26,817 nt of DNA from Promethearchaeota archaeon. GTDB taxonomy: Archaea > Asgardarchaeota > Thorarchaeia > Thorarchaeales > Thorarchaeaceae. The notes under the pieces were generated by a model. The model was given only the letters and a program-made list of their open reading frames with translations. It searched no databases and was not told the DNA's origin. Positions 11,308-13,703 of the stretch are shown here, piece after piece (position 1 is the first letter of the stretch; every line of letters starts with the position of its first letter). The position numbers were made by a program, and so were the translations under genes. The DNA lies in contig WJMJ01000065.1 of assembly GCA_014728035.1 (NCBI GenBank), forward strand, positions 1 through 26,817. Direction: 5' to 3'.

Positions 11308-11729
11308 TCAAAATAAATCTAATCTTCCTAAATTCTTGTATGGATTGCATATTGAGAAATGTACCAGAACCACACTCGTGGAAGCAAGAATCTTCACATG
11401 GAAAGTTGGCCATCCTGACTTCCACACTCCCTTAATATGATTTGATGCAACTATGGGTGAAATGGATTTCATTTCGTTCCTTGAACTTCTGGTAATAAGA
11501 CCCATAGCAGTTCCATCTGATGGAGGGGGTCATTGGGGTCGTGCTGAGAGAGGTCAGCGATGAGGCTTATGTCGTGGATCTGCATGTCCAAGCAATCCCA
11601 ATGGTCGTATGCCTGTACCTTGACCACGAGATACATGATGATACGCTCGGGAATATGCACATCAGTCAAGGTCGAGTAATGCTGGTACCACCAATCCAAG
11701 AATAGAGGACTTGTACACCGCTCTAACAC
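11308..11729 (-). pseudogene. Frameshifted, truncated paralogous module of the 12303-13703 protein (orphan cassette)
   Basis: ORF 11469-11729 reads RII.....Q.Y..W...DM..HDISLIADLSQHDPNDP, colinear with the 466-aa ORF. Restoring 1 nt at the G-run 11525-11529 continues as xPSDGT-28aa-WKSGWPTFH in the 11308-11505 frame, matching YPCDGT-28aa-WTGPWPTLH. Confidence 0.85.
11526..11576 (-). repeat. 51-bp direct repeat, copy 2 (junction box)
   Basis: 48/51 identical to 13065-13115; the three differences are synonymous (ATA/ATC, TCT/TCC, AAT/AAC). Confidence 0.95.
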
Positions 11730-11746
11730 TTGTCTGTATATCTACT

Positions 11747-12319
11747 CTAATCCTGTTCGGGTATCTCTATCCCCAATTCCTTCATTCGTTGTCTTGCAAT
11801 CTCTCTAACATCATCATCACGATTTGAGAGGTATTTTAGAAACCCACTAACCGAAACGGATTTGTAGATTTTTTCAGCATTTTCAACATAGTCTAAAGCT
11901 TCTTGAAAGCCATAGCTGATTTTATCCGATTCCACTATTATCCATTCTGCTTCGATATACGTCCCTTTAGCATGACGTTCAGCAAGGTCGAATCGCTCAA
12001 ATCGCACAATGTTAACAACAATCATACCAAGAGTATAGATTATTCCAGGAAACAAGGAGAACATAGGAGTTGGATACATGTCGATTATGATTGGAATCTG
12101 TGTTTCTGCAACAAAAAGGGGAAGACCAATAATTAGGAATACCCCAGGAACAAGATGAAACACGAGGTTCCAATTTGAATCAATCAGCATACTTCTCTTT
12201 CTTCTGAGAATTGTTCTTCTCAAAGGAAATTCGAATAGTATGATAACCAATAGGGAGATTGCAAATGCTAACAGAAATATAATTCCAATCAATATCATTA
12301 CCTCATGAAAAGATATCAT
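11747..12319 (-). CDS. 3-TM membrane protein with a soluble C-terminal tail; candidate immunity protein
   Basis: Three hydrophobic segments; its start overlaps the end of the upstream 466-aa ORF by 17 nt. The immunity role is inference. Confidence 0.75.
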   Translation of the reverse strand: MISFHEVMILIGIIFLLAFAISLLVIILFEFPLRRTILRRKRSMLIDSNWNLVFHLVPGVFLIIGLPLFVAETQIPIIIDMYPTPMFSLFPGIIYTLGMIVVNIVRFERFDLAERHAKGTYIEAEWIIVESDKISYGFQEALDYVENAEKIYKSVSVSGFLKYLSNRDDDVREIARQRMKELGIEIPEQD

Positions 12320-13703
12320 AATACGAAATCGATAGTTCCCACATTTTCAGAATGAGACTACAAATCAGAGATATAATGAAACATTTCACTGCAAGCATAT
12401 AAAACGATAGCCCGATTAATAATAATCCACGTTTACCCCAAGGCAGGTTCCTTGTATTCCAGTATTTTGAATAGAATTTCAAGTATTGCATCTTCTCGAT
12501 AATAGATTCTATTCCCAAACCTAATAATGCAGCTAATAACCACTGAATAGCAACTCCAGGTGTCATTCTTTCAGATAATACTGCATCTACAACTGCATAT
12601 AGAGCTGCAAACATTGCTATTCCGAATACTGTTATTAGCCCATAAAGTATAGCAAGCTGGAAGGGCGTTGGAGCAACTGTCATTGCTTCGAGATAAACTT
12701 CGATAATACCCATCGCTAAAACTGCAACTAGTAATAAATTTGCCTCAGGTGGGAATGCATCTTGCATGAACTCCTTTATGCCTTGAGCATGGAGTTCATC
12801 TGTCTGAGTTGCTGTGAGATGATCATCTAAGGGAGTATCTAAGGTAAATTCACCAATCGAAATAGATTCAAGCAAATCCACGATTAATTCACAGATATAC
12901 ATACCACCTCCTTCTAACGTAACATCCGTAATCATGTGCAACGTAGGCCATGGCCCTGTCCATTCGCTGTGAGTATTGTCTTCAATCATACTGAAAATAC
13001 CATCAACAAAAGAACATGCTGTCACTGAAGGTTCATTTCCACTATTAGTTCCATCGCAAGGATAGGGGTCGTTGGGGTCGTGCTGGGAGAGGTCAGCGAT
13101 GAGGCTGATGTCGTGAAGTCGCATATCTGCCAGGGCCCAACTTGAGTAACGTTGGGCTCTGATAGCAACAGTAGAGATGATCCGTGAGGAATTATCAACT
13201 TCCCAGGGGTAGGCCATGACGTCTCCGTCTATTGACCCGTAGATGGCTCCCTCGCCACCCTGCCACTGTTCCCACCACAGGTTACCCTCCCAAGTGGTAG
13301 TAGTGGATTCGTAATCTGAGGAATAGCTATGTGATCCGCCATTTTGAGGATAGTAAAATACACTGAATCGACACTTCTTCTCATAACCCCAAGCGTCACC
13401 CCATGCAATCTGAAAAGCAATCTCTCCAGAATCATCAAATAGTCCAATGTAGTATTTGCCCATGGTAGATGTGGTCGCCTGAATCATCTCACCAATGACA
13501 GAGAATTCATCCAATTGGAATAGCCTAAAGGGACGCGAGAGGTGGTGAACATAATTTGGACCGTGCCAACCTGAGGGAGAATTCGGAATTGAGGTTGGTT
13601 TCAGGTAGCTTGTTCCTGTTAGACATTTGAACTCTGCATCAGAGACCGTTTCCCATTCAAAATCTGGGTTCTTTGTCGCTTCCGTAATAAAGTCACTACA
13701 CAC
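12303..13703 (-). CDS. Probably 5'-truncated modular protein: aromatic beta-rich N-part, conserved junction, hydrophobic multi-helix C-terminal domain (candidate membrane-active toxin)
   Basis: GTG start two codons downstream of an in-frame TAA; no signal peptide despite extracellular-type composition; 4-5 hydrophobic helices in the last ~145 aa. Confidence 0.75.
   Translation of the reverse strand: MCSDFITEATKNPDFEWETVSDAEFKCLTGTSYLKPTSIPNSPSGWHGPNYVHHLSRPFRLFQLDEFSVIGEMIQATTSTMGKYYIGLFDDSGEIAFQIAWGDAWGYEKKCRFSVFYYPQNGGSHSYSSDYESTTTTWEGNLWWEQWQGGEGAIYGSIDGDVMAYPWEVDNSSRIISTVAIRAQRYSSWALADMRLHDISLIADLSQHDPNDPYPCDGTNSGNEPSVTACSFVDGIFSMIEDNTHSEWTGPWPTLHMITDVTLEGGGMYICELIVDLLESISIGEFTLDTPLDDHLTATQTDELHAQGIKEFMQDAFPPEANLLLVAVLAMGIIEVYLEAMTVAPTPFQLAILYGLITVFGIAMFAALYAVVDAVLSERMTPGVAIQWLLAALLGLGIESIIEKMQYLKFYSKYWNTRNLPWGKRGLLLIGLSFYMLAVKCFIISLICSLILKMWELSISYYDIFS
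13065..13115 (-). repeat. 51-bp direct repeat, copy 1 (junction box encoding HDISLIADLSQHDPNDP)
   Basis: 33/51 G+C (65%) in an AT-rich background; near-identical to 11526-11576. Confidence 0.95.

Follow-up and report, generated by a model that had tools for sequence, protein, structure and literature searches.

What is a 466-amino-acid (aa) open reading frame (ORF), overlapped by a small membrane gene and followed by a fragment resembling itself, doing in the genome of an Asgard archaeon? The three elements lie between positions 11,308 and 13,703 of a 26,817-nucleotide (nt) stretch of contig WJMJ01000065.1 (Promethearchaeota archaeon, assembly GCA_014728035.1); this whole stretch is referred to below as the window. 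An earlier note, made from the letters of the window, had read them as an array of polymorphic-toxin-like cassettes with a membrane-active effector in an Asgard host. The host was named correctly: a homologue of the 466-aa protein carries the label Candidatus Thorarchaeota. Thorarchaeota stand close to the ancestor of eukaryotes, and there is hardly any knowledge of how Asgard archaea compete with or recognize one another. Our analysis indicates that the locus is probably a degenerate, orphan-only instance of a cassette system for conflict or kin discrimination, restricted to one family of Thorarchaeota and likeliest of a toxin/immunity-like kind.

An orphan cassette and a decayed second copy

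The window locus is an orphan-only, partly decayed remnant in which the ORFs for the 466-aa protein, with its tail, and for the partner are intact. The 466-aa ORF (12303..13703, negative strand) was delineated by ORF calling and translation, AlphaFold2, Foldseek, and a family profile, which matched at positions 1 to 457. It opens with a GTG at 13703, directly preceded by TAG TAA GAA, and its N-terminus is not hydrophobic and lacks a signal peptide. The protein consists of a handle (aa 9 to 203), which is a complete ConA-like lectin beta-sandwich; a disordered junction linker (aa 204 to 226) containing HDPNDPYPCDGT; and a tail. The tail is made up of a head with the motifs WTGPWPTLH and DLL (aa 227 to 290) and five long helices, four of them hydrophobic (aa 298 to 465). 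The first residue of the ORF is the exact start of the lectin domain, and a search upstream of the GTG for a remnant of the cassette family found none. The start codon after in-frame stops, the missing signal peptide, and the tail of four to five helices were all where the note had placed them, and these features, together with the start at the lectin boundary, fit its view of the ORF as an orphan cassette.

We define the junction as positions 13053..13118 of the negative strand (aa 196 to 217), which encode the last beta-strand of the handle and the linker up to D217 G218. In the identity profile of the family, conservation falls sharply just past this Asp-Gly.

The third element (11308..11741, negative strand) was examined by tblastn, DNA alignment, three-frame translation, and profile matching. 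Its frame opens at a GTG at 11729, 17 nt past the end of the small membrane gene, and the stretch from 11645 to 11526 matches aa 174 to 213 of the 466-aa ORF with 25 of 40 residues identical (E value, 3e-12). By eye, the similarity begins at about aa 140 of that ORF (LDWWYQHY versus NLWWEQWQ), and the family profile matches at positions 164 to 211. A box of 17 residues, HDISLIADLSQHDPNDP, is the same in both copies; over its 51 nt, the DNA differs at 3 bases, all of them synonymous. Past the box, the loss of 1 nt near 11522 causes a frameshift, and the new frame retains DGT, GWPTFH, and LDLF in place of DGT, PWPTLH, and DLL of the 466-aa ORF. The copy stops at 11308, short of any hydrophobic helix, and no partner gene follows it. 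Judging from these features, the third element is a frameshifted, truncated pseudogene and not the intact start-less orphan module that had been proposed. The 17-nt gap and the reentry upstream of the junction were described accurately; the "very different" downstream sequence holds just between the conserved motifs.

Parents and arrays in related genomes

A six-frame search of the order with the single 466-aa protein gave matches in 41 of 87 genomes. We fetched about 30 loci of relatives, built the family profile, and mapped every member; searched with this profile, 46 of the 85 other genomes of the window's own family matched. Outside that family, the profile returned one weak match to the lectin domain and nothing else. 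Depending on the search, 41 to 48 genomes of one family contain matches, many of them arranged in tandem. The system is thus lineage specific and patchy in its distribution. Many copies with conserved N-terminal parts, each with a small gene behind it, had been named by the earlier note as what would support its reading, and the search recovered them.

Two kinds of members were found. Parents, 980 to 2120 aa long, have a conserved signal peptide, an N-terminal domain, two or three tandem lectin domains, a junction, and a tail. Cassettes, 260 to 470 aa long, start inside the last lectin domain, or in some cases the one before it, and extend through the whole tail. Full-length carriers, which the earlier note thought might lie elsewhere in the window's genome, exist in related genomes as signal-peptide-bearing parents; none was found in the window's own assembly. 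Almost every parent or cassette is followed, often with an overlap, by an ORF of 100 to 235 aa with two to four hydrophobic helices. This ORF is present behind 64 of the 72 junction-bearing members, and these served as tail-partner pairs in the comparisons below. Arrays reach up to seven tail-partner pairs (loci L040, L027, and L024 in our numbering), and many of them stop at contig ends. The idea that the window holds a one-off decayed tandem duplicate was rejected because relatives carry such arrays.

Tails are 221 to 271 aa long, except for one 209-aa copy, and are mutually homologous by profile. Searched against 1.84 billion representative proteins, the tail profile gave 235 matches; among the 150 matches listed, the matched region reaches the C-terminus or comes to within about 40 residues of it. 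A few tails are carried by FN3 domains, not lectin domains, and are preceded by the motif P.D..(F/Y/C)DGT. On a metagenome contig, such tails form the same type of array, with FN3 stubs of varying length (JGI contig Ga0315553_10002550, L054:4266-10776). A DUF6036 gene adjoins an array of this type, and HepT/MNT toxin-antitoxin genes adjoin one on another contig.

Evidence for exchange of tails at the junction

Within an array, members are 55 to 76% identical in amino acids (68 to 82% in nucleotides) up to profile position ~215. Past this position, identity drops to 13 to 17% in amino acids and to about 33% in nucleotides, which is the random level, apart from islands at W..WP.LH and DLL. Between genomes, the corresponding amino acid identities are 35 to 57% before the junction and 10 to 15% after it. 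In the family alignment, P210, D217, and G218 are nearly invariant, as is the linker motif P..P..DG(T), and W252 and P253 are invariant.

Handle and tail are in a mosaic relation. Over 1,650 pairs, how alike two handles are shows no correlation with how alike their tails are (r = 0.07), with extremes of 0.92 for the handle and 0.11 for the tail in one direction and 0.32 and 0.54 in the other. Tails and partners go together: 32 of 35 partner-similar pairs are also tail similar, and every pair of tails at least 54% identical has partners that match at an E value of 1e-18 or better, although the genomes of one family are kin, so that these counts and the Fisher test overstate independence. The tails of the parents in L030, L023, and L013 are 64 to 88% identical to orphan tails of other genomes. 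Cassettes begin at points scattered from position 1 to position 193 of one beta-sandwich (median, 143), so the handle stubs cannot fold alone.

As read from the alignments, these comparisons show a modular architecture with a sharp junction, a mosaic of the recombination type, covariation of tail and partner, interchange between parents and orphans, and two types of carriers. The polymorphic cassette layout anticipated for the window, namely, a conserved N-terminal part, a sharp junction, a hypervariable module, a covarying small membrane gene, and 5'-truncated orphans, is borne out.

The 17-residue box deserves separate consideration. It corresponds to the last strand of the lectin domain and the start of the linker in the AlphaFold2 model. 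At its identical residues, the two window copies share 14 of 17 codons, a value that fits the background for same-array comparisons (71%) and not that for between-genome comparisons (49%). The residues S, I, SQ, and ND of the box are common to both copies and unlike the family consensus, and the flanks have diverged. Other arrays are alike; in L024, for example, the box is 89 to 94% identical, compared to 43 to 61% in the 45 residues upstream. In such alignments, the box behaves as the most homogenized part of the handle stub, as would be expected if it supplied the homology for exchange. Alternatively, the likeness of the boxes may reflect a lineage-specific constraint on the motif.

Just before the box, at profile position 192 (aa 194 of the 466-aa ORF, window positions ~13122 to 13124), lies a conserved Met. 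In more than a dozen cassettes of other genomes, this Met is the first ATG. It could act as an internal start, giving a protein composed of the last strand, the linker, and the tail. Because many cassettes have this conserved Met, the production of short forms is possible.

Predicted folds of the handle and tail

The AlphaFold2 model of the 466-aa protein, built from an alignment of 60 sequences, had a predicted local distance difference test (pLDDT) score of 88, with values above 90 over aa 10 to 200 and below 50 at aa 214 to 222. When the handle (aa 9 to 203) was compared to PDB folds with Foldseek, the best match was 5ly8 (E value, 1.7e-7; target template modeling [TM] score, 0.58), and calreticulin, GH16, and PL7 domains were also matched at a probability of 1.00. 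By its model, then, the handle is a jelly roll of the ConA-like lectin/glucanase type. The junction was modeled as a disordered linker between two confidently predicted domains.

Modeled alone from 66 sequences, the tail reached a pLDDT of 89 and a predicted TM score of 0.84. Its head consists of one helix and a four-stranded sheet bearing W..WP.LH and DLL; five long helices come next, and four of these hold strongly hydrophobic stretches. The loop between hydrophobic helices 3 and 4, KMQYLKFYSKYWNTRNLPWGKRG, is strongly basic, consistent with a fixed topology in which the head is extracellular. From the four hydrophobic helices and this basic loop, the tail is predicted to insert into the membrane of its own producer. 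In VIA-align wide, the tail model retrieved generic helical bundles alone (among them syntaxin, MukF, spectrin, and designed repeats) at Z scores of up to 10.7, which is inside the noise level for helical models. Co-folding of the tail alignment with the 190-aa partner gave scores of 0.00, 0.63, and 0.00 and was used neither for nor against a complex.

Partner genes

The small membrane gene described in the note is present as stated: the 190-aa partner ORF (11747..12319, negative strand) starts with an ATG at 12319, overlaps the end of the 466-aa ORF by 17 nt, and encodes three hydrophobic helices. A basic loop, RRTILRRKRS, follows helix 1, and the protein ends in a charged, conserved C-terminal domain of about 80 aa. 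The gene is intact and probably still expressed. Neither this protein nor the 466-aa protein matched a Pfam, NCBIfam, or PADLOC family above noise, and the same scans of the parents and of a 722-aa protein encoded nearby likewise gave nothing above noise.

Partners form one superfamily, in which the membrane helices are variable and the C-terminal motif FL..LS.R.D..G..AR is kept. Homologues of the 190-aa partner follow exactly those tails that are closest to the tail in the window (the L022 parent, L005, and L027). At L054, the partner function is seemingly split between a three-helix protein and a second protein with the conserved partner tail.

Partner homologues also occur without a nearby tail, including in three genomes without the tail family. 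The window's own genome encodes one of 166 aa (G000:C130:46735-47235; locus L057:5736-6236, negative strand) that matches at an E value of 7e-15, has the three helices and the conserved C-terminal tail, and has no tail cassette nearby. Similar stand-alone partners were found in G047 (as a tandem pair), G079, and G022, all of which lack the tail family. This is the pattern seen for orphan immunity genes.

The N-terminal domain of parents and the window's genome

The N-terminal domain of the parents bears the motifs SHGG and LFAAC.S. Within them, H110-G111 and C145 are invariant in 8 parents and in a 1,592-aa protein encoded next to the cassette in the window. This His-Gly/Cys arrangement resembles the pattern of caspase-like (clan CD) peptidases and is a motif-level lead; a profile search of PDB sequences and a permissive Pfam scan found no relative of the domain and so gave the idea no support. 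A disordered junction with an invariant Asp-Gly and, in the parents, a caspase-like His/Cys motif together point to possible release by proteolysis.

The 1,592-aa neighbor is a surface protein with TSP3 repeats (13743-18521, positive strand), arranged head to head with the cassette. Its N-terminus resembles the parents' N-terminal domain, especially over 14058-14315 (E value, 1e-4; 21 to 29% identity), and keeps the invariant His-Gly, with the Cys ~35 residues later. It carries a C-terminal anchor of its own, and it is not the missing parent. Directly downstream of the decayed cassette lies the gene for the 722-aa protein (9045-11213, negative strand), which is solenoid-like and repetitive, belongs to no curated family, and has no homologue beside the arrays of other genomes. 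Its sole match is a 22%-identical protein in a same-genus genome. Synteny with this genome, the only one of the same genus, was set aside, since at such a distance it is of no help. Farther away are genes for a 1,446-aa right-handed beta-helix/NosD-type protein (3953-8293, positive strand) and an 854-aa protein of the penicillin amidase family (1161-3725, negative strand). With the 1,592-aa protein, these two make the neighborhood rich in large exported proteins.

The window's assembly comprises 4.3 Mb in 173 contigs and is 98% complete. Queries with the whole ORF, the N-terminus of a parent, and the family profile returned the two window copies, a lone stub, and lectin domains in unrelated giant proteins. 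The stub, of 81 codons (G000:C121:72540-72785; L049:6541-6786, positive strand), contains the end of a handle and a junction (…FRIHDLGIEIDL…DNDGT…) with neither tail nor partner; with it, the genome holds a third vestige of the system, decayed completely. Among the giant proteins is one with a ConA-like domain akin to the handle (G000:C28:9541-10179, negative strand; E value, 4e-11) in an open frame of 9,987 codons, which is a giant surface protein.

How the system may work

In relatives, where the full system is seen, the parent is a large, predicted Sec-exported surface protein composed of a signal peptide, the SHGG...LFAAC domain, and two or three lectin (sometimes FN3) domains. It continues through the flexible P..P..DG(T) linker into an exchangeable tail of about 240 aa, with an alpha/beta head and five long helices, four of them predicted to span the membrane. 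Each tail is encoded with its own small membrane partner, whose helices vary with the tail and whose cytoplasmic end is conserved. Behind the presumably expressed gene, 5'-truncated spare modules of tail and partner retain a stub of the handle, and we propose that this stub provides the homology for recombination that swaps the tail. On this view, the 466-aa ORF of the window is a spare module whose truncation falls right at the beginning of its last lectin domain, and the next module has decayed.

We infer that each tail binds its cognate partner within the membrane and that the pairs function in conflict or kin discrimination. Most likely, by analogy to the ionophore toxins of contact-dependent growth inhibition (CDI) and their CdiI proteins, the tail would damage membranes and be neutralized by a cognate, immunity-like partner. 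We rank this form first because of the orphan arrays, the stand-alone partners, and the analogy to CDI ionophore toxins.

Several observations weigh against this explanation. The tail matched no known toxin or pore fold and no curated family: Foldseek found nothing at an E value of 0.001 or lower in the PDB or a library of viral models, and no colicin, Bcl-2-type protein, or alpha-pore-forming toxin stood out in the fold searches. The colicin-like pore fold suggested for the tail thus found no counterpart in Foldseek at that threshold or in VIA-align wide. The tails are, as far as profiles can tell, one hypervariable superfamily of near-constant length, whereas classic polymorphic toxins end in unrelated domains; the C-termini were wrongly expected to be unrelated past the junction. 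Delivery is the main difficulty. The parents have a Sec signal, no conserved genes were found upstream of them, and no delivery apparatus is linked to them. The signal peptide, the four strongly hydrophobic helices, and the basic loop predict that the tail stays in the producer's membrane, so that a delivered effector would need an extra transfer step. The partners share a conserved cytoplasmic end, which a pure immunity protein would not need and which may point to an additional role. The three queries described above found no parent in the window's assembly, so the system may be inactive there. The kinship of the genomes compared, noted above, counts on the same side.

The main rival is a non-lethal, IdsD/IdsE-like identity system, which we consider unlikely but a serious contender. 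The tail and partner would form an allele-specific membrane complex that, without killing, tells self from non-self or gives permission for adhesion, fusion, or membrane exchange, and the cassettes would be stored identities. Variation concentrated in the covarying membrane helices of tail and partner would suit such a role, as would a tail seated in the producer's own membrane, the variability of its extracellular head, the conserved cytoplasmic end of the partner (for signaling), and the lectin handles (for cell-cell contact). Stand-alone partners in tail-less genomes, however, are more easily explained as protection, and arrays of orphan modules with partners are a hallmark of toxin/immunity loci. 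Moreover, the curated family scans recognized no signaling domain.

A more specific scenario, to which we give only a small chance, is that Thorarchaeota use polymorphic membrane toxin tails and cognate antidotes to police membrane exchange through vesicles, protrusions, or transient fusion. The system would then be an archaeal counterpart of SitA/SitI in myxobacterial outer-membrane exchange. A cut at the invariant Asp-Gly of the junction could free the tail from its lectin handle, and the caspase-like N-terminal domain of the same protein might make that cut.

It is improbable that the arrays reflect an ordinary tandem expansion of paralogues encoding a surface-protein anchor and its stabilizer, with a fast-evolving membrane part, genuine short forms, and no swapping. 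Such an expansion would account for tails of one superfamily and constant length and for the intact reading frames of most cassettes, which have a possible start codon, often the Met at profile position 192. Rates alone, however, cannot yield 70% versus 14% identity across a linker in one array. They also leave unexplained why handle and tail identities show no correlation, with extremes both ways, why the same tail can occupy parent and orphan positions and sit on both FN3 and ConA-like handles, and why cassettes begin at so many points within one beta-sandwich.

An antiviral or abortive-infection device, with a lectin handle that senses virus, a tail that opens the membrane, a partner that keeps it closed, and diversity driven by viral inhibitors, is very improbable: some arrays lie beside toxin-antitoxin-type genes (HepT/MNT and DUF6036) and the distribution is patchy and accessory, but sensing parts usually vary the most and here the handle is the conserved part, PADLOC matched no known defense family, and spare 5'-truncated modules are foreign to known defense systems.

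The cassette family has the full genetic grammar of polymorphic toxin systems, built from undescribed domains and with the variable part inside the membrane. If the tails prove to be toxic, or to be identity tags, they would be the first means of studying conflict between cells or kin recognition in Asgard archaea and would imply a route by which membrane proteins reach neighboring cells. The tail-partner pairs are small and self-contained. For annotation, the family accounts for many membrane ORFs labeled "hypothetical" and for many of the breaks between contigs in Thorarchaeota assemblies.

Comparison with known systems

A literature search, which did not cover the 2019 mBio survey of archaeal conflict systems, found no paper on the Thorarchaeota cassette system. 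Its closest parallels in overall layout are the polymorphic toxins (CdiA-CT/CdiI, Rhs, and MafB). In both, the conserved body of a large exported protein ends in a short conserved motif that precedes a variable C-terminal module; a cognate small gene lies downstream, 5'-truncated spares keep stubs, and modules occur on different carriers. Three features of a polymorphic toxin system, namely, a demarcated variable C-terminal module, a covarying downstream gene, and truncated spares with exchange, were observed here. Classic polymorphic toxin systems are rare in archaea, and some polymorphic toxins have releasing peptidases of the caspase-like type (Zhang et al. 2012, PMC3482391). The Thorarchaeota system differs in being archaeal, in having a signal peptide but no dedicated secretion system, and in having no domain that belongs to a described toxin, pre-toxin, or immunity family. 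Its tails are one membrane-embedded superfamily rather than many unrelated enzymes, and their toxicity is proposed by analogy.

The ionophore toxins of CDI (CdiA-CT EC93) are one homologous family of five-helix bundles with highly polymorphic cognate immunity proteins (PMC11630599). The likeness lies in a small N-terminal domain joined to a membrane-spanning bundle of five helices, in extreme sequence variation, and in partners that are at most ~30% identical; it is a likeness of predicted architecture, and no sequence similarity was detected. CdiA relies on two-partner export and delivery across the outer membrane, whereas the Thorarchaeota tail is predicted to be inserted into the producer's membrane through Sec. 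The Thorarchaeota partner, in addition, bears a conserved cytoplasmic tail.

Pore-forming colicins have membrane immunity proteins of three to four helices, and the colicin pore domain is a soluble bundle of ten helices with one buried hydrophobic hairpin. Shared with the Thorarchaeota cassettes is a small multihelix membrane protein encoded beside a helical C-terminal domain, which in the Thorarchaeota case would likewise be membrane active and have the small protein as its specific counterpart. The Thorarchaeota tail differs in having four strongly hydrophobic helices and an alpha/beta head.

IdsD and IdsE of Proteus mirabilis recognize each other in an allele-specific manner through variable regions in or near membrane segments, and IdsD is delivered by a type VI secretion system. 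Allele-specific recognition between two proteins is what the systems would have in common; they are not homologous. We know of no arrays of truncated spare modules of the IdsD/IdsE genes.

The VARTIG modules of Thermococcales have an immunoglobulin domain as the variable part and downstream genes in unique combinations, and toxin, immunity, and self-recognition hypotheses have been proposed for them (Makarova et al. 2021, PMC8416519). The Thorarchaeota system has no sequence relation to VARTIG; its variable part is a bundle of membrane helices, each module has one covarying partner, and 5'-truncated spares are regular. Even so, VARTIG is the nearest archaeal analogue: it too is lineage specific and combines a signal-peptide-bearing surface protein, a hypervariable C-terminus apparently reshuffled through recombination, and variable small membrane genes downstream.

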